A stretch of DNA of 4,958 nt from Escherichia coli (GCF_036507355.1 NZ_AP027883.1), one strand, 5' to 3'. Positions 1-4,958 are shown, counted from the stretch's first letter. Translations and numbers: made by a program. Notes: generated by a model from the sequence alone, not told the origin.

Positions 1-124
1 AACCAGCCTCGACACCATCAAGAGCTGGGAAACCGGACGCCGTAACCCGACCGGACTGGCGGCGAAGGTACTGGCAACCATCCAGGCGAACCCGAAATTC
101 TTCCAGGAACTGGCGGCGCACTAA
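1..124 (+). CDS. higA: 3' part of a HigA2-like XRE-family helix-turn-helix antitoxin gene (5' part is at the window end; nt 1 is the third base of a codon split across the window boundary)
   Basis: Reading from nt 2 gives TSLDTIKSWETGRRNPTGLAAKVLATIQANPKFFQELAAH followed by TAA at 122-124. The SLDTIKSWETGRRNP stretch is the second helix and turn of a classic XRE-type HTH. It continues in frame from the partial ORF at 4798-4958. Confidence 0.75.
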   Translation, partial: TSLDTIKSWETGRRNPTGLAAKVLATIQANPKFFQELAAH

Positions 125-272
125 GCCGTTGTGACAGAAGGATTCGACAGGCGAGGCCGTTCGCGTGTAATTTAACGGCAACAGAAAAAACAAAGCCCCG
201 GAAATCATGTCATATCTTGGCGGATCGCATGATAACCAGGGCCAGGTCGAAACCTTGAAAGGATATTAGCAC

Positions 273-323
273 ATGAAACGTGCCAGACAACAGCCCGCCA
301 TAAGCGCAGGGCGAATTGAATAA
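273..323 (+). promoter_or_regulatory. Candidate 16-codon leader mini-ORF (MKRARQQPAISAGRIE) whose stop overlaps the rep start; possible translational-coupling element
   Basis: ATG at 273-275 preceded by AAGGA (259-263) at 9 nt spacing; in-frame TAA at 321-323 lies 3 nt after the TTG at 316 that opens the rep frame (aTTGAATAA). Purely sequence-based, no homology support. Confidence 0.25.
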
Positions 324-1284
324 CGCAGTACTCGAACTTTTCAACGACCGCTTACCGCACAAGCCGTACTTTTCGGACGATCTGCACTTTGGTGTACGCA
401 TTGCCGGTAAGGAACGCGCCATTCTGGCGAAATACATCCAGTTCAATCAGCCTCACGCCATGTTCTGGCTGGGATTCGACGTCGATCGCGCCGGTGCCGC
501 TATTGACTGGAGCGACCGCAATGCCCCCGCGCCGACACTGACGATCACCAACCCCGAAAACGGGCACGCGCACCTGCTTTACGCGCTGAAAACCCCGATA
601 CGTACCGCGCCAGACGGAAAAATGAAGCCATTACGCTACGCAGCTGCCGTAGAGAACGCGCTACGTAAAAAATTAGAGGCTGATGCGGGGTATTCGGGAC
701 TAATCTGCAAAAATCCGAACCACGGACACTGGAAAATTGCCGTATGGCAGCCGGAACTCTACACGCTGGACTGGTTGGCTGACTTTCTTGACCTGAACGC
801 AGCGAACGAAAAAGACATCGTTGATGACTACGGCTTAGGCCGTAACTGCACCTTGTTCGACAAGACCCGTAAGTGGGCATACCGCGCTATCCGTCAGGGC
901 TGGCCGGAGTATGAGCAGTGGCTGCAAGCCTGCTATGAGCGGGCTAGTGCTTACAACCTGCAATTTGCTGTGCCTCTGGATGAAAATGAGGTGAACGGGA
1001 TTGCTAAAAGCATTGCTAATTGGACAATATGCAATATGTCAGAATTCGAATTTAGAGAATACGTAAAGAAAACTCACACTTCAAAAATACAAGCTTTGAG
1101 AGGTAAGATTGGAGGTCGCAAAAGCAAAGGTGGAGGGCGTAGGAAAAATTCTAGTTGCCCCACATCAGAACGAACTACAAAGCCATGGGTTTTACTTGGT
1201 ATTAGTCGTTCGACTTATTACAGGAAAAAATCAAATAAATTTAAGGCTGATTTAAATGTCCAACCAGAAGAGTTTGAATATTGA
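316..1284 (+). CDS. rep: ColE2-type plasmid replication initiator Rep (plasmid-specific primase), probable TTG start
   Basis: 322-aa ORF. The N-terminal two thirds (LPHKPY, QPHAMFWLGFDVDR, NPENGHAHLLYAL, YSGLICKNPNHGHW, GLGRNCTLFDKTRKWAYR) and the C-terminal KPWVLLGISRSTYYRK match my recollection of the ColE2 Rep family. There is no in-frame ATG between the upstream stop (301-303) and residue 48, so TTG 316 is the only plausible start; the Shine-Dalgarno is weak (AGGG at 308-311). Confidence 0.85.
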   Translation: MNNAVLELFNDRLPHKPYFSDDLHFGVRIAGKERAILAKYIQFNQPHAMFWLGFDVDRAGAAIDWSDRNAPAPTLTITNPENGHAHLLYALKTPIRTAPDGKMKPLRYAAAVENALRKKLEADAGYSGLICKNPNHGHWKIAVWQPELYTLDWLADFLDLNAANEKDIVDDYGLGRNCTLFDKTRKWAYRAIRQGWPEYEQWLQACYERASAYNLQFAVPLDENEVNGIAKSIANWTICNMSEFEFREYVKKTHTSKIQALRGKIGGRKSKGGGRRKNSSCPTSERTTKPWVLLGISRSTYYRKKSNKFKADLNVQPEEFEY

Positions 1285-2275
1285 GTTGCTTAGGTGTCTC
1301 GCAGTAATTTCAGTGATTTTGATACATATGACCATGGGGCATTTTTACGATGCCTTGCTCATGCATGAAAATAAATTGTCATGGATTGTTAGTAATCTTT
1401 ACTACTCGTTAACTAGGTTTTGCGTCCCTATTTTTTTTATTATATCAGCTTATTTGGTTTTTAATAATAAATCCAATAAGAAATGGCATGAAAGATTAGT
1501 AAGACTTGGCTTGCCATTCGTCGCATGGTCGGCTATTTATTATGTGTACGGAGGAGGGCGCGATGCCTCGGAATTCCTAAAAAAAATACTAACAGAAAAC
1601 ACATCATTTCATCTTTGGTTTTTTCCTCCTTTTATAGGTTACACTCTTCTTCTTCCTGCGATCAAAAGTTTATTCATCAGTGAGAATAAAGATAAATTCA
1701 AATATATTTTCGTTATCATTTTTTTATCGTCCATCTTCACCCCTTCATTAATAATGCTGCTAAATTATTTTATTGGTGGCTATTCGTTTATCTATGGGAT
1801 AAGTAATTTTTGTTTAACGCTACCACCTTTGTTAGTATATGGTTTCGCATTTTCTTATTTTTACAAAAAAGTTAACGTGGTGAGTTGGTTTGTGGGGTAC
1901 TTAGTTATAATAATACTCAATATGATGATTAATATCATTATATCTAATAAGCTTGGCACACCTAATGAATGGTTTTATGGCTATACATCAGTTCTGGTTT
2001 TTATTTCTTCTTTTGTTTTATTCAACGTAGTCATGTCAATGAATCTTTCATTTCTTCCAGAAATGGCTGGTAAGGTTGTTTTGATTGTAGGACAGTGCTC
2101 ACTTGGAATATATTTATCTCATTGGTTGGTGTTTTTAATTTTGAGTAAGCATGGTTTATTGTTTTCTGGTAGAGCCATTGTTGATCCAATACTAAATACA
2201 GTAATAGTCTTTTGTGCTTCTATCGCTTTTACATTAGTAGTTCGAATTATTAAACCATTGCGCTATATCTTGTAG
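1256..2275 (+). CDS. Integral-membrane acyltransferase family 3 protein (AT3 / OafA-Oac-like O-acetyltransferase), substrate unknown
   Basis: 339-aa ORF, very AT-rich, hydrophobic throughout (multiple predicted transmembrane segments). N-terminal LLRCLAVISVILIH fits the AT3 first-helix signature R-x2-A-x3-V-x3-H, and FFIISAYLVF resembles the second conserved AT3 motif. ATG at 1256 is preceded by AAGG (1243-1246). The start overlaps the last 29 nt of rep. Stop TAG at 2273-2275. Confidence 0.8.
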   Translation: MSNQKSLNIELLRCLAVISVILIHMTMGHFYDALLMHENKLSWIVSNLYYSLTRFCVPIFFIISAYLVFNNKSNKKWHERLVRLGLPFVAWSAIYYVYGGGRDASEFLKKILTENTSFHLWFFPPFIGYTLLLPAIKSLFISENKDKFKYIFVIIFLSSIFTPSLIMLLNYFIGGYSFIYGISNFCLTLPPLLVYGFAFSYFYKKVNVVSWFVGYLVIIILNMMINIIISNKLGTPNEWFYGYTSVLVFISSFVLFNVVMSMNLSFLPEMAGKVVLIVGQCSLGIYLSHWLVFLILSKHGLLFSGRAIVDPILNTVIVFCASIAFTLVVRIIKPLRYIL

Positions 2276-2284
2276 CTCAATGGT

Positions 2285-2323
2285 TGTGAGACCAAAAACA
2301 AGCCTATATCAGATAACAGCCCT
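2285..2323. other. Probable ColE2-type replication origin (Rep binding and primer synthesis site)
   Basis: tgaGACCAaaaacAAGCCTaTATCAGATAACAGCcc closely resembles the ColE2-P9 minimal origin as I recall it (TGAGACCAGATAAGCCTTATCAGATAACAGCGCCC). In ColE2 plasmids the origin lies just downstream of rep; here it follows the cargo gene instead. Confidence 0.5.
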
Positions 2324-2346
2324 CTTTAGCAGAGGGCTGTTTTTTT
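2317..2346 (+). terminator. Rho-independent terminator closing the rep-acyltransferase transcription unit
   Basis: Perfect 9-bp stem CAGCCCTCT (2317-2325) / AGAGGGCTG (2331-2339) with 5-nt loop TTAGC, followed by a T7 run (2340-2346). Overlaps the 3' end of the origin-like sequence. Confidence 0.6.
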
Positions 2347-2379
2347 GCAGCCAGCACAGAACCTGACATACTGCACTAC

Positions 2380-2400
2380 TCTTTAAGCCAGTACACACAG
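2380..2400 (-). other. ColE1-like oriT nick-site core (bom-type)
   Basis: The - strand reads ...GTGTGTACTGGCTTAAAGAG..., containing TACTGGCTTAA, which is identical to the nick core of the ColE1/pBR322 bom region (gtaTACTGG/CTTAActatg). It lies about 125 bp upstream of mbeC; a short inverted repeat CGTC...GACG (2401-2414) is adjacent. Confidence 0.5.
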
Positions 2401-2468
2401 CGTCCCCTCTGACGAGGTGCCACCGTGACTGGTTCAGGGGGCTCGCCGCCCCCCGAAACCCCCGGCAT

Positions 2469-2510
2469 CCACTGCGAAAAATTCTCACAGTGGTGCGAAT
2501 TTTTTCTCAG
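2469..2510 (+). promoter_or_regulatory. Putative mob operon promoter/operator with repeated TGCGAA-N3/4-TTCTCA elements
   Basis: Direct repeat TGCGAAaaaTTCTCAcag (2473-2490) and TGCGAAttttTTCTCAg (2494-2510), each containing a GAA-W-TTC near-palindrome, plus inverted repeat CCACTG (2469-2474) / CAGTGG (2488-2493). Sits immediately upstream of mbeC; a ribbon-helix-helix MobC-type protein would be a natural binder. No clear sigma70 hexamers assigned. Confidence 0.3.
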
Positions 2511-2518
2511 CGGAGCCT

Positions 2519-2845
2519 ATGGAAAAGCGAACGAAAGAGATAAAAATCCGGCTTACCGAAACCGAGCATCAGCGACTGCTTGATCGCTGCGACCGGACTC
2601 ACCTTGCGGAGTGGCTTCGTCAGCTCGGTCTGGGTGAACATACCTCCCGCAAGCGCCGTGTGCCTGAGGTGGCGCCCGAACTGCTGCGGCAGGTCAGCGG
2701 TATTGGCAATAACCTGAACCAGATTGCCCGCCGCCTGAACCAGGCTGATTCCCTGACGCCTTCTGAACGTGTCTCGCTGCTCGTCGTACTGACCAGCCTT
2801 GATCGGCAGCTTGGCGACCTGCTGGAGCAGAACCGTGATCGTTAA
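2519..2845 (+). CDS. mbeC: Mobilisation accessory protein MbeC/MobC (relaxosome DNA-binding protein)
   Basis: 108-aa ORF. TETEHQRLLDRCD, the LLRQVSGIGNNLNQIARRLN block and the overall length fit the ColE1 MbeC / MobC family as I recall it. GGAG at 2512-2515. Stop TAA (2843-2845) overlaps the relaxase GTG start. Confidence 0.8.
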   Translation: MEKRTKEIKIRLTETEHQRLLDRCDRTHLAEWLRQLGLGEHTSRKRRVPEVAPELLRQVSGIGNNLNQIARRLNQADSLTPSERVSLLVVLTSLDRQLGDLLEQNRDR

Positions 2846-4403
2846 AATTCACTCACGAGGTGCGGGTTCCGGCAGCGGGCCGGTAGATTACCTGTTGGGT
2901 AAAGACCGGCAGCGTGAACAGGCCTGCGTACTGCGTGGCAATCCTGAACATGTGCGTGAGCTGATCGACGGCTGCAACTTTGCCCGCGCCTACACTTCCG
3001 GCGTGCTTTCATTCCAGGAACCTGACATTGCAGACGCCGAGAAATCGCGCCTGATGGACGAATGGGAGCACACGCTGCTGACCGGACTCGACCGCGACCA
3101 GTACGCCTGCCTGTGGGTAGAGCATCGCGACAAGGGACGGCTTGAGCTGAATTTTGTCATCCCGAACATCGAATTGCAGAGTGGAAAACGCCTGCAACCC
3201 TACTTTGACCGCGCCGACCGTCCCCGCGTCAACGCCTGGCAGACCCTGACCAACGACCGGCTGGGGCTGCGCGACCCGAATGACCCGACCTACCGCCGTC
3301 CGCTGACGCAGGCCAGCGATCTGCCCCGCGACAAACAGCAGGCGGCAGAGAAAATCACCGCCGGCCTGATGAACCTGATGCAGCAGGGCGTGATCCGCAG
3401 CCGGCAGGACGTGGTGACGCAGCTGGAAAGCTACGGCCTGACCGTAGCGCGGGAAACGAAAAGCAGCATCAGCATTGCCGATCCGGACGGCGGCCGAAAT
3501 ATCCGGCTGAAAGGAATGATTTATGAGCGAGATTTTAAATTTGGCGAAGGGCTTCGAGGAGAAATCGAAGCAGCAGGCGCAGGATACCGAGCAGAGCGTG
3601 AAGCGCGAGTTCGCGAGGCTGGAGACGTCTATCAGCGCGGAACTGCAATCAAGCTCGCAGAGCATCAGCAACGCTATCCGCGAGCAGAACGGCAGGCTGA
3701 CGGGCATGATCAGAACCTCCGTTTCAGCGGCGATGGCGTGGGTATTCCTCTGCTTCGCCCTGCTGATCGGCATCATGGGGGGGATAATCTGGTTTCAGGG
3801 CACGATCATCACCTCGCGCCTGAGCGAAATGGACAGCTACAGCCAGCAGCTGGCGAACCTGAAAGCGAAAAGCGGCGCGGGCGTGGCGATCTACAGCGAC
3901 GACAAGCACCGGAACACCTACATGGTGGTGCTGCCGAAGCAGGCGCACGGCGTGGAAACCTATACATCGACGACCGACAACACCGTAGTGAAATACACGG
4001 CGAAATAACCCCGTCAGAGCGCCCTGAAACGACACAGCGCGTTTTTAACACCGAGGATGACCAAAACCATGACCGAGATGGAAAAACAGCTTCTGAGCGC
4101 CTTAGAGAGCTTACAGACAAGCTACGAGCAACAGCAGCAGGCGTGGCAGGACAGCTACAGCAGCTTGCAGCACATGTTCGAGGCTACCTCACAGGCGCTG
4201 ACGCACAGCGACCGGGTGTGTCAGCACTTGAGCAGTCAGGTAGAGAGCTTGCGCGCGCAGGTCGAGAGCTTGAGCAGGAACGTCAGCCGCTTGATGCGTT
4301 GATCAGGCAGCACGACCGCGCCTACGCCGAGAAGCTGCGTGAGCAGCAGCCAGAGCCGGAGCCGCAGAAAAAAACGACCCGCTACTATGGCCCCTCGATG
4401 TGA
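2835..4403 (+). CDS. mbeA: MOB-HEN (ColE1 MbeA-type) conjugative relaxase; start placed at GTG 2835 rather than the ATG at 2799 in the ORF track
   Basis: From GTG 2835 the protein starts MIVKIHSRGAGSGSGPVDYLL, putting the catalytic Tyr at residue 19 and the HEN motif at H97/E104/N106 (LWVEHRDKGRLELNFVIPN), the same numbering as ColE1 MbeA. GTG 2835 is in frame with ATG 2799 and overlaps the mbeC stop (GTGATCGTTAA). 522 aa; the C-terminal half is low-complexity and charged. Confidence 0.85.
   Translation: MIVKIHSRGAGSGSGPVDYLLGKDRQREQACVLRGNPEHVRELIDGCNFARAYTSGVLSFQEPDIADAEKSRLMDEWEHTLLTGLDRDQYACLWVEHRDKGRLELNFVIPNIELQSGKRLQPYFDRADRPRVNAWQTLTNDRLGLRDPNDPTYRRPLTQASDLPRDKQQAAEKITAGLMNLMQQGVIRSRQDVVTQLESYGLTVARETKSSISIADPDGGRNIRLKGMIYERDFKFGEGLRGEIEAAGAGYRAEREARVREAGDVYQRGTAIKLAEHQQRYPRAERQADGHDQNLRFSGDGVGIPLLRPADRHHGGDNLVSGHDHHLAPERNGQLQPAAGEPESEKRRGRGDLQRRQAPEHLHGGAAEAGARRGNLYIDDRQHRSEIHGEITPSERPETTQRVFNTEDDQNHDRDGKTASERLRELTDKLRATAAGVAGQLQQLAAHVRGYLTGADAQRPGVSALEQSGRELARAGRELEQERQPLDALIRQHDRAYAEKLREQQPEPEPQKKTTRYYGPSM
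3523..4008 (+). CDS. mbeB: MbeB-like mobilisation protein, nested in the +1 frame inside mbeA
   Basis: 161-aa ORF with AAGGA (3511-3515) 7 nt before the ATG; a charged N-terminal region followed by one hydrophobic segment (AAMAWVFLCFALLIGIMGGIIWF). Position and architecture match ColE1 mbeB; call is positional/architectural rather than from verified sequence identity. Confidence 0.6.
   Translation: MSEILNLAKGFEEKSKQQAQDTEQSVKREFARLETSISAELQSSSQSISNAIREQNGRLTGMIRTSVSAAMAWVFLCFALLIGIMGGIIWFQGTIITSRLSEMDSYSQQLANLKAKSGAGVAIYSDDKHRNTYMVVLPKQAHGVETYTSTTDNTVVKYTAK
4069..4302 (+). CDS. mbeD: MbeD-like mobilisation protein, nested in the +1 frame inside the 3' part of mbeA
   Basis: ORF track starts at ATG 4057 (no spacing after GAGG). 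The in-frame ATG 4069 (MTEMEKQLLSALESLQ...) has GAGGA 11 nt upstream and better fits the ColE1 MbeD start as I recall it. Coiled-coil-like repeats (QVESLRAQVESLSRNV). Same frame as mbeB. Confidence 0.55.
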   Translation: MTEMEKQLLSALESLQTSYEQQQQAWQDSYSSLQHMFEATSQALTHSDRVCQHLSSQVESLRAQVESLSRNVSRLMR

Positions 4404-4404
4404 C

Positions 4405-4460
4405 CGCTTTTCCGAAATCAGAATTAAGTGTACTATGTACTCCGTTAAAAACAGGAGACA
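4405..4460 (+). promoter_or_regulatory. Putative higBA promoter/operator region
   Basis: 60-bp gap between the mbeA stop and the higB start contains TTAAGTGTACTATGTACTCCGTTAA, with a GTAC-TAT-GTAC dyad (4427-4440) overlapping a possible -10 (TACTAT 4431-4436), then a strong AGGAG (4453-4457) 6 nt before the GTG. Toxin-antitoxin operators are typically palindromes overlapping the promoter. Confidence 0.3.
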
Positions 4461-4463
4461 GCC

Positions 4464-4796
4464 GTGAGTCACGCGATTGAGTTTATCGAGACCCCGATGT
4501 TTACCCGTCAGATAAAACAGATCGCCACGGATGAAGAACTCAGGGAGCTGCAAAAGACGCTGATTGAGTCGCCGGACAAAGGCGATCTCATTCAGAAAAC
4601 CGGCGGGCTGCGCAAAATCAGGATGGCGACGGGCAACCAGGGAAAAAGCGGCAGCGTGAGGGTGATTTACTTTCTGGCCACCGCCGAGGTGATCTATCTG
4701 GTGATGGCCTACCCGAAAAGCACCAAAGACAGCCTGACGGACGCGGAAAAAGCCGCGCTGAAGACGCTGACCCAACAACTGAAAGACGAGGTGTGA
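4464..4796 (+). CDS. higB: HigB2-like (RelE/ParE superfamily) type II toxin, GTG start
   Basis: 110-aa ORF. TGGLRKIRMATGNQGKSGSVRVIYF and the downstream AEVIYLVMAYPKSTKDSLTD match the HigB-2 toxin family (GTGGLRKIR...GKRGGSRIIYYF...YLL..Y.K pattern) as recalled from Vibrio HigB-2. Toxin-first gene order is typical of hig modules. Stop TGA 4794-4796, 1 nt before the antitoxin ATG. Confidence 0.8.
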   Translation: MSHAIEFIETPMFTRQIKQIATDEELRELQKTLIESPDKGDLIQKTGGLRKIRMATGNQGKSGSVRVIYFLATAEVIYLVMAYPKSTKDSLTDAEKAALKTLTQQLKDEV

Positions 4797-4797
4797 C

Positions 4798-4958
4798 ATG
4801 AGTTTTTTTGACGAGCTGAAAGCATCGCTGGAAGAAGCCGTTGAAATCAAAAACGGCGTCAGAGAGCCTGCCCGCGTCACCCGTTACGAGCTGGCAGACG
4901 TGAAAGCCATCAGGGCACAGCTGAACGTATCTCAGAGCGAGATGGCGAAAGTGCTGGG
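4798..4958 (+). CDS. higA: 5' part of the HigA2-like XRE-family HTH antitoxin gene (runs off the window end and continues at nt 1)
   Basis: MSFFDELKASLEEAVEIKNGVREPARVTRYELADVKAIRAQLNVSQSEMAKVLG...; LNVSQSEMAKVLG is the first helix of an XRE HTH. 53 complete codons plus GG; with nt 1 (A) this makes GGA (Gly) and continues in frame into the 1-124 fragment. Confidence 0.8.
   Translation, partial: MSFFDELKASLEEAVEIKNGVREPARVTRYELADVKAIRAQLNVSQSEMAKVL

Follow-up and report, generated by a model that had tools for sequence, protein, structure and literature searches.

The stretch of Escherichia coli DNA analyzed here (the window, positions 1 to 4,958 of a 4,958-bp record) begins and ends within an open reading frame (ORF) that is cut off at the edge. 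The question raised by this locus is whether its last and first bases are neighbors on a complete circular plasmid, as the original prediction had proposed, or whether the window represents a single unit from a tandem array, part of a larger replicon, or an assembly artifact.

The antitoxin gene at the window ends

The features located at the two edges of the window were the following.

4464..4796, plus strand: HigB2-like toxin gene of the RelE/ParE superfamily, 110 aa (PF06296, annotated in ten loci that carry the identical gene)
4798..4958, plus strand: nadS/higA2-like antitoxin gene, 5' part (codons 1-53, then two bases of codon 54, GG)
1..124, plus strand: nadS/higA2-like antitoxin gene, 3' part (from the last base of codon 54 through codon 94, with the stop TAA at 122-124)
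Base 4958 to base 1: window junction, where the sequence reads ...GTGCTGGGAACCAGCC...

The window end holds 53 sense codons counted from the ATG (4798-4956) followed by GG at 4957-4958, and the window start holds 40 sense codons (nt 2-121) followed by the stop codon TAA at 122-124. Together with A(1) the terminal GG gives a GGA codon (Gly), which is codon 54 of nadS, and joining 4798-4958 to 1-124 produces a 285-nt ORF of 94 aa plus stop: MSFFDELKASLEEAVEIKNGVREPARVTRYELADVKAIRAQLNVSQSEMAKVLGTSLDTIKSWETGRRNPTGLAAKVLATIQANPKFFQELAAH. At the window start, one of the two remaining frames was closed after 14 codons, and the other ran on for 43 codons to a stop. Over 285/285 nt the joined ORF agreed with nadS (WP_001697687.1) from NZ_CP063292.1, a closed circular plasmid of Salmonella, and the NCBIfam NadS equivalog covered residues 1-94 of the 94-residue joined protein with 176.7 bits (cut-off 60). 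The helix-turn-helix (HTH) region of the antitoxin (residues 34-92), within which the junction falls at residue 54, matched the HigA-2 structures 5jaa and 5j9i from Vibrio cholerae (E-value 1.8e-7).

It had been proposed from the ORFs that the two partial frames complete each other exactly, that GG and nt 1 (A) form a Gly codon within a 94-aa product, and that an HTH spans the junction. Direct reading, the base-for-base agreement with a known nadS and the structural alignment bore out all three points. The naming of the antitoxin as HigA or HigA2 held in so far as HigA-2 is its nearest structurally solved relative; the family is not identical, however. The resemblance to HigA-2 is confined to the HTH half, and NCBI assigns the protein to a separate equivalog, NadS (a literature search on this name returned nothing informative). 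Judged from the sequence, the in-frame join is not a product of chance, and the two "partial" antitoxin ORFs constitute one intact gene.

The toxin stop codon (4794-4796) is separated from the antitoxin ATG (4798) by a spacer of 1 nt, so that a HigB-2-like PF06296 toxin is encoded first and is directly adjoined by an HTH antitoxin. The best solved relatives of the toxin were HigB-2 structures (E-value 8e-15), and it matched phrog_5869 with 102 bits. HigB-2/HigA-2 from V. cholerae, the best solved-structure relatives of both proteins, share with this pair the toxin-first order and the position of the HTH in the C-terminal part of the antitoxin. The HigB2-like toxin and the NadS antitoxin would presumably act as an addiction module.

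Contiguity of the window in independent assemblies

Searches for terminal and internal repeats showed that the window lacks both a terminal overlap and a long internal repeat, with short matches at chance level only, which rules out a duplicated end; the window is exactly one non-redundant unit. When the window was rotated, single uninterrupted matches were obtained across the end-to-start junction in two closed circular relatives (97.1% and 95.4% identity), and the closed plasmids matched in this way were 4.9-5.6 kb in size. The junction with 200 nt on either side was ungapped, and the 94-aa NadS identical, in all of the related loci compared (13/13).

The segment that distinguishes the window from its relatives lies between the replication gene rep and the putative origin and comprises the following features.

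1026..2285, no strand assigned: low-GC variable cargo module that holds the last ~86 rep codons, with 36% GC, and the acyltransferase gene, with 32.5%
1256..2275, plus strand: cargo gene, Acyl_transf_3 membrane acyltransferase (O-acetyltransferase-like), 339 aa (PF01757)

The cargo DNA gave no match in PLSDB (segment 1000-2300, distant mode) and no carrier among complete E. coli genomes (whole-window search), and an exact-protein contig look-up was therefore used instead. This look-up (NCBI, ENA, Logan) recovered the plasmid, including its cargo gene, from ten independently made assemblies of E. coli and Citrobacter farmeri; in every one of them it made up the whole contig (4,954-5,087 bp). 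The ten contigs were broken at nine different places, and in eight of them the ends overlapped by a length typical of assembler k-mers (127, 77, 55, 18, and four times 30), from which units of 4,953-4,961 bp were derived. One contig (L007), which shows a single mismatch to the window, gave a unit of exactly 4,958 bp and contained the 120-nt junction unchanged.

These assemblies bear on two alternative explanations. The window might be part of a larger plasmid or the product of a chimeric misassembly, in which case the join would be coincidental or the low-GC segment an artifact. The sharp change in GC content at position 1026, inside rep (from 54% to 33-36%), and the missing PLSDB match for the cargo would fit this explanation; nevertheless, the 1026-2285 segment recurs with the same flanks in all ten assemblies from the two host species, the joined ends match a known gene at every base, and low-GC inserts after rep have already been described for plasmids of the pUB6060/pHW66 type (PMC2831885). 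We regard this explanation as extremely improbable.

Alternatively, the window could be one unit of a head-to-tail tandem array, either a plasmid dimer or multimer or an array integrated in a larger replicon, which was collapsed by the assembler. A tandem repeat and a circle leave identical k-mer end overlaps in de Bruijn assemblies, and some relatives have been deposited as multimers (e.g., four copies in 21,085 bp and two copies in 11,269 bp). On the other hand, no contig >10 kb with the cargo gene was present across 37 index blocks, the ten contigs read were free of foreign flanks, and the exact Rep protein has been deposited as plasmid-borne (BED24765.1, labeled "(plasmid) [Escherichia coli]"), and for these reasons a tandem repeat unit is considered very unlikely. 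The closest relatives, moreover, are closed monomeric circles of 4.9-6.1 kb, and even a multimeric form of the plasmid would remain a circle built from the 4,958-bp unit.

The contiguous junction and the self-contained assemblies thus support the proposal that the ends join, and with high confidence the window can be taken to represent a complete, non-redundant 4,958-bp circular plasmid that was written from an arbitrary point inside nadS. On the real molecule base 1 would follow base 4958 and nadS would be intact; a record start within the antitoxin gene is an ordinary consequence of linearizing a circle. For annotation, the record is to be treated as a closed replicon and not as a fragment. 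A monomeric circle and a head-to-tail multimer are physically indistinguishable from sequence assemblies.

Replication and mobilization genes

A complete set of replication, mobilization and addiction genes had also been predicted for the window, and family or structure matches were found for all three. Rep, the acyltransferase, MbeB and the toxin were left unassigned by NCBIfam, and Pfam hits precomputed on identical genes were used in its place together with PDB searches. The features assigned to replication were the following.

194..305, plus strand: rep mRNA leader, a long hairpin with UUGGCG in the loop (Rfam, folding)
~300 to 176, minus strand: candidate antisense copy-number-control RNA (hairpin followed by a U-run)
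316..1284, plus strand: rep, ColE2-type initiator primase, 322 aa, TTG start (PF03090 Replicase, PF08708 PriCT_1)
2287..2322, plus strand: putative ColE2-type replication origin, TGAGACC...CTATATCAGATAACAGCCC (aligns with the sequence directly after the pIGMS5 rep stop)
2315..2341, plus strand: terminator-like hairpin (11-bp stem, then a T7 run) that extends over the right edge of the origin

The Pfam domains identify Rep as a primase-type initiator of a ColE2-type replicon, and the origin-binding domain is included, as residues 176-305 matched the structure of the ColE2-P9 Rep DNA-binding domain (3vw4, E-value 5.7e-29). The Rep alignment included pIGMS5, pMUT2 and other Reps. A ColE2-type origin is likewise present in cis according to the alignment of window positions 2287-2322 with pIGMS5; its core TATCAGATAACAGC was invariant in 5/5 aligned plasmids, and the origin region was conserved in 474 PLSDB plasmids. 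For comparison we used a 43-base sequence which we take to be the ColE2 origin; by BLAST it was exact over 42/43 bases in 85 plasmids, where it was located at the rep stop of colicin-type plasmids. In the window the origin does not directly follow rep: a gap of ~1.0 kb after the rep stop (1284) is filled by the acyltransferase gene, a known deviation that is common to pUB6060, pHW66 and pMUT2. From homology, Rep would serve as a plasmid-specific primase that binds the ColE2-type origin (~2287-2322) and primes replication.

The leader matched the Rfam family PK-repBA with 39.8 bits (E-value 2.3e-6), which is under the gathering score of 45, and the region is conserved in pMUT2. Its minus strand gave a weak match to the Rfam family CopA-like (E-value 0.45) and a predicted fold of -42.8 kcal/mol (z -2.9). 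The candidate antisense RNA directed against the rep leader would probably restrain Rep synthesis. A simple sigma-70 scan of the window gave fewer promoter sites than shuffled sequence did, and none of those beyond the AT-rich cargo was convincing.

The mobilization module consists of the following features.

2383..2398, minus strand: oriT nic-region-like sequence GTGTGTACTGGCTTAA, upstream of mobC
2519..2845, plus strand: mbeC/mobC, relaxosome accessory protein, 108 aa (PF05713 MobC, PF21983 NikA-like; homologs annotated as MobC family)
2835..4403, plus strand: mbeA, relaxase, 522 aa, GTG start (NCBIfam relax_MbeA_E1)
3523..4008, plus strand: mbeB, 161 aa, nested inside mbeA in another frame (homolog annotation "MbeB family mobilization protein"; called in several loci)
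4057..4302, plus strand: mbeD, mobilization/entry-exclusion protein, 81 aa, nested inside mbeA (NCBIfam plas_excl_MbeD, 105.2 bits at a cut-off of 60)

The module thus combines an MbeA-type relaxase gene, nested mbeB and mbeD, and an upstream mobC, with mbeB identified through homolog annotation only. MbeA scored 476.7 bits (E-value 1e-142) and fell slightly short of the curated cut-off of 500, a value set for ColE1 MbeA itself, and the identical 522-aa call was made in two of the loci (L006 and L007). The nic-region-like sequence GTGTGTACTGGCTTAA agreed at 15/16 bases (E-value 0.016 within the window) with what we take to be the nic region of the pBR322/ColE1 bom site. MbeA together with MbeB, MbeC and MbeD would nick this putative oriT just upstream of mobC, and a co-resident conjugative plasmid could thereby mobilize the window plasmid.

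Known relatives and the cargo between rep and the origin

The window plasmid is best assigned to the known pUB6060/pHW66/pMUT2 type of mobilizable ColE2-type plasmids, here from E. coli and Citrobacter. For pUB6060 (Plesiomonas) and pHW66 (Rahnella), published work (PMC2831885) describes a ColE2-like rep, a putative origin beyond a low-GC insert that seems to be cistronic with rep, and a mobA-D system of the ColE1 superfamily; the window plasmid has these features in common with them and with pMUT2. The layout of rep, cargo and origin is also found in pMUT2, p58 and pCP8-3-ColYe4449.

Plasmids of the Col(Ye4449) type from Salmonella, Klebsiella, E. coli and Raoultella, e.g., pR17.4111_p5.6k (NZ_CP063292.1), pJBIWA001_8 (NZ_CP074190.1) and p58 of ETEC H10407 (NC_017723.1), were collinear with ~75% of the window, i.e., its whole backbone, at 95-97% identity. 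They share with it an identical NadS protein and the gene order nadS-rep-cargo-ori-mobC-mbeA(B,D)-higB. Homology to the closed relatives ends at window position 1025 and restarts at 2286, and the backbone has a GC content of 53-59%. In the Col(Ye4449)-type plasmids the cargo slot is occupied by genes for AIPR, dCTP deaminase, DNA methyltransferase, TIR+DUF4231, DUF262, AAA ATPase, Kiwa and others, whereas the slot of the window plasmid (1026-2285) holds the acyltransferase gene and a low-GC Rep C-terminal tail of its own.

The first 29 nt of the cargo gene lie within the end of rep, and the low-GC module appears to be co-transcribed with rep and would supply an O-acetyltransferase-like membrane enzyme. 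The cargo protein gave a full-length match to phrog_3333 "O-acetyltransferase" (E-value 5e-13), and its cluster has source names such as "peptidoglycan/LPS O-acetylase OafA/YrhL". No PADLOC model fitted the acyltransferase or the toxin, and the cargo can therefore not be filed as a known defense system.

The cargo is the only unusual part of an otherwise well-known plasmid type; biologically, the finding of a circular plasmid is correct but ordinary. The sole element of wider interest is the slot between rep and the origin, which in relatives holds many different anti-phage genes and in the window plasmid an O-acetyltransferase-like enzyme, through which the cell surface might be modified. We tentatively suggest, as a speculative reading, that this gap may be a slot dedicated to the exchange of host-protection cargo, with each cargo bringing along a Rep C-terminal tail and being expressed from the rep transcript, and that the putative O-acetyltransferase found here might alter a surface polysaccharide (O-antigen or similar). 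If so, phage adsorption or serotype would be altered, and the molecule would be a mobilizable 5-kb "serotype-conversion/anti-phage" plasmid.

The more distant relatives differ from the window plasmid in several respects. The inserts of pUB6060, pHW66 and pMUT2 are different from that of the window. In pMUT2 (E. coli Nissle 1917) the order is rep-kwaA-kwaB-ori-mobC, a RelB/DinJ-type antitoxin is located nearby in place of HigB2/NadS, and the backbone DNA identity to the window is lower, about 84% at the origin. Colicin plasmids of the ColE2-P9 type (e.g., pIGMS5, NC_010883.1) have the Rep family, the DNA-binding domain (3vw4) and the origin core in common with the window plasmid, but their origin starts at the rep stop codon, while that of the window plasmid lies 1 kb downstream, after the cargo. 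Unlike them, the window plasmid is without colicin, immunity and lysis genes, and according to PLSDB typing its closest relatives carry a relaxase of the MOBP type, whereas that of pIGMS5 is MOBQ.

Reading frames at the window ends and gene content

Translation of window positions 4798-4956 gave 53 sense codons from an ATG, with GG remaining at 4957-4958; these two bases and base 1 (A) form a GGA glycine codon, and positions 2-121 add another 40 sense codons before a TAA at 122-124. At the window start, the remaining two frames are interrupted by a stop, one after 14 codons and the other after 43. The original prediction that the partial reading frames at both ends complete each other in frame was thus borne out, the frame joined across 4958/1 comprising 285 nt (94 aa) and being identical at 285/285 nt to the antitoxin gene nadS (WP_001697687.1) of the closed circular plasmid NZ_CP063292.1. 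The window is the entire source record (record size 4,958 bases) and, since neither a terminal direct overlap nor a long internal repeat was found when it was searched, represents a single non-redundant unit. The replication, mobilisation and addiction gene set that had also been proposed is present, with Rep and ori, mob genes and toxin-antitoxin genes recognised by family, structure and sequence matches.

Features of the window
194-305 (+), rep leader; Rfam PK-repBA, 39.8 bits against a threshold of 45 (below gathering), E 2.3e-6
316-1284, rep, 322 aa; PF03090 and PriCT_1
1256-2275, acyltransferase, 339 aa; Acyl_transf_3; start overlaps the rep end by 29 nt
2287-2322, ColE2-type ori, TGAGACC...CTATATCAGATAACAGCCC; aligns with the ColE2 ori
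2315-2341, hairpin of 11 bp and T7 run; overlaps the right edge of ori
2519-2845, mobC/mbeC; PF05713
2835-4403, mbeA, 522 aa; MbeA model score 476.7 bits, slightly short of the cut-off of 500
3523-4008, mbeB; nested within mbeA in another frame
4057-4302, mbeD; nested within mbeA in another frame; score 105 bits (cut-off 60)
4464-4796, HigB2-like toxin, 110 aa; PF06296

The best solved relatives of the toxin are HigB-2 structures (E 8e-15). The antitoxin starts one base past the toxin stop and matches the NCBIfam NadS equivalog over its full length (176.7 bits), whereas the match to its nearest structures, HigA-2, is limited to the HTH half.

Independent assemblies and closed relatives

As the strongest test of the join, the exact cargo protein (the acyltransferase) was looked up in public assemblies, where it was listed in 37 index blocks. 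Ten contigs of 4,954-5,087 bp were retrieved from NCBI, ENA and Logan and aligned to the doubled window. Each aligned over essentially its full length with 97.0-99.98% identity, and all ten crossed 4958/1, their starts lying at nine window positions (4779, 4290, 3889, 4745, 2638, 4259, 3866, 2433 and, twice, 2347). Identical sequence of typical assembler k-mer size was present at both ends of 8/10 contigs (127, 77, 55, 30 in four contigs, and 18), and trimming of these overlaps left units of 4,953-4,961 bp. The unit of one Logan contig (ERR1790377) was exactly 4,958 bp long; it differed from the window by a single mismatch and contained the 120-nt junction unchanged. GenBank lists the exact Rep protein as BED24765.1 under the label '(plasmid) [Escherichia coli]'; records exist of the exact acyltransferase from E. 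coli and of a member of its cluster (at least 90% identity) from Citrobacter farmeri.

With the window as query, megablast matched 1,268 PLSDB records. The best were closed circles of 4.9-6.1 kb, carried by Salmonella, Klebsiella, E. coli and Raoultella, which were 95-97% identical to the window over about 75% of its length. The window was then rotated to place the junction mid-sequence and aligned to two of the closed circles. Rotated positions 1-3505 (window 2479-4958 followed by 1-1025) formed one match, of 97.1% identity to NZ_CP063292.1 and 95.4% to NZ_CP074190.1, which in both cases passed straight across the junction. The alignment of the junction ±200 nt was gap-free in 13/13 loci, all of which encode the identical 94-aa antitoxin.

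The alignments across the junction and the varied breakpoints of the ten assemblies support the proposal that the window is one complete 4,958-bp circular plasmid, a reading we hold with very high confidence. A split antitoxin gene is what ordinarily results when a circular sequence is written out linearly. Ten independent assemblies that agree with one another, together with a nadS gene restored without a single base difference, exclude a fragment or chimera for practical purposes. The assembly signature of a circle would also be left by a head-to-tail multimer or by a tandem array integrated elsewhere, and multimeric records are present among the relatives, but this alternative is very improbable: no contig with the exact cargo protein in the 37 index blocks exceeded 10 kb, and none of the ten contigs aligned had foreign flanks. 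A plasmid multimer would still be this circular plasmid. Both the plasmid family and the plasmid itself are already known, the latter from public databases.

Records of circular plasmids routinely cut genes or operons at their ends, that of p58 from ETEC H10407 between higB and nadS and that of pCP8-3-ColYe4449 within mobC. Two contigs from different NCBI assemblies (L011 and L012) lack an end overlap and both open the circle at window 2347, the base next to the ori hairpin and its T7 run (2315-2346); coverage or assembly may have failed at the hairpin or homopolymer. Some relatives carry two to four backbone copies per record (NZ_CP138436.1, 21,085 bp, four places; NZ_CP090473.1, 11,269 bp, two places; NZ_JBRAVH010000004.1, 14,910 bp, four places); such records may represent genuine multimers, cointegrates or artefacts of long-read assembly.

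Predicted replication and mobilisation functions

Rep residues 176-305 match the origin-binding domain structure of ColE2-P9 Rep (3vw4, E 5.7e-29). The ColE2 ori sequence used as query was, by BLAST, exact at 42/43 of its bases in 85 PLSDB plasmids. The ori core TATCAGATAACAGC was invariant in 5/5 plasmids aligned, and 474 PLSDB plasmids share a conserved version of the window's ori region. With UUGGCG in its hairpin loop, the rep leader is similar to the regulatory hairpin of IncB/I-type repBA, and the opposite strand (300-176, minus) folds into a hairpin with a U-run behind it (z -2.9), weakly resembling CopA antisense RNA with its terminator; in this region all Rfam matches stayed below their gathering scores. 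ColE2 is known to be under antisense control, with which this candidate minus-strand element would fit.

In an uncurated comparison, which serves as a lead, the minus strand at 2398-2383 showed a candidate nic-like site, GTGTGTACTGGCTTAA, identical at 15/16 bases to the pBR322 bom nic region. In close relatives (L019, p58, 1646-1963; L020, 4619-4936) the relaxase is annotated by RefSeq as a short pseudogene 'missing C-terminus', probably an annotation artefact of the nested genes. In the window and several loci, mbeA is an intact 522-aa frame that encloses mbeB and mbeD, each read in a different frame.

The cargo segment between rep and ori

Homology to the closed relatives ends at 1025, inside rep, and restarts at 2286, just before ori. 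The intervening 1,260 bp are low in GC (rep tail 36%, cargo reading frame 32.5%, backbone 53-59%) and had no DNA match in PLSDB or complete E. coli genomes. The recombination boundary lies at about Rep codon 237; the last ~86 codons are low in GC like the cargo gene and differ from the relatives in DNA, yet the C-terminal motif KPW..LGISRSTYYRK, conserved in the DNA-binding domain of ColE2 Rep, is retained. It therefore seems that every cargo brings a Rep tail of its own, whereas conservation of ori remains at ~91%. The acyltransferase ATG lies 29 nt ahead of the rep stop in a different frame, and the only strong terminator-like hairpin (2315-2341) is downstream of the cargo, which suggests co-transcription with rep and perhaps translational coupling. 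Rozhon et al. noted the same arrangement in pHW66 (PMC2831885).

The acyltransferase matches the phage 'O-acetyltransferase' phrog_3333 over its full length and none of the PADLOC models. Beyond this plasmid, its nearest relatives reach no more than 56% identity, and the named ones among them (Erwinia, Cronobacter, Pantoea) are all on contigs of 265-512 kb. A chromosomal homologue in Cronobacter muytjensii (L018, 4694-9023; 42% identical) adjoins gtrA-like, glycosyltransferase-2 and GT_STM0557_N genes, an O-antigen-modification type of neighbourhood which supports a role in surface-polysaccharide O-acetylation.

Apart from the position of ori, which does not immediately follow rep, the window has the features that define a ColE2-type replicon, antisense control being a candidate one; in the colicin plasmid pIGMS5 the ColE2 ori begins at the rep stop codon. 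Its layout (rep, low-GC insert cistronic with rep, ColE2-type ori, ColE1-type mob) is that described for pUB6060 and pHW66, a sub-group in which the separation of ori from rep is already documented (PMC2831885), and is shared by the E. coli Nissle plasmid pMUT2, which has Kiwa as its insert. Slot genes in relatives include AIPR, anti-phage dCTP deaminase, DNA methyltransferase, TIR+DUF4231, DUF262, AAA ATPase and restriction S subunit. On these mobilizable 5-kb plasmids the slot has the look of a hot spot for defence genes. Tentatively, the rep-ori gap might be an exchange slot for host-protection cargo, here holding a surface-polysaccharide O-acetyltransferase; if so, the enzyme could affect phage adsorption or serotype. 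The slot contents of relatives (pMUT2, L014, 1213-3005; p58, 2618-4414; L020, 300-1594; L002, 238-963) are very varied and mostly anti-phage genes, also include an Abi gene, and occur on either strand.
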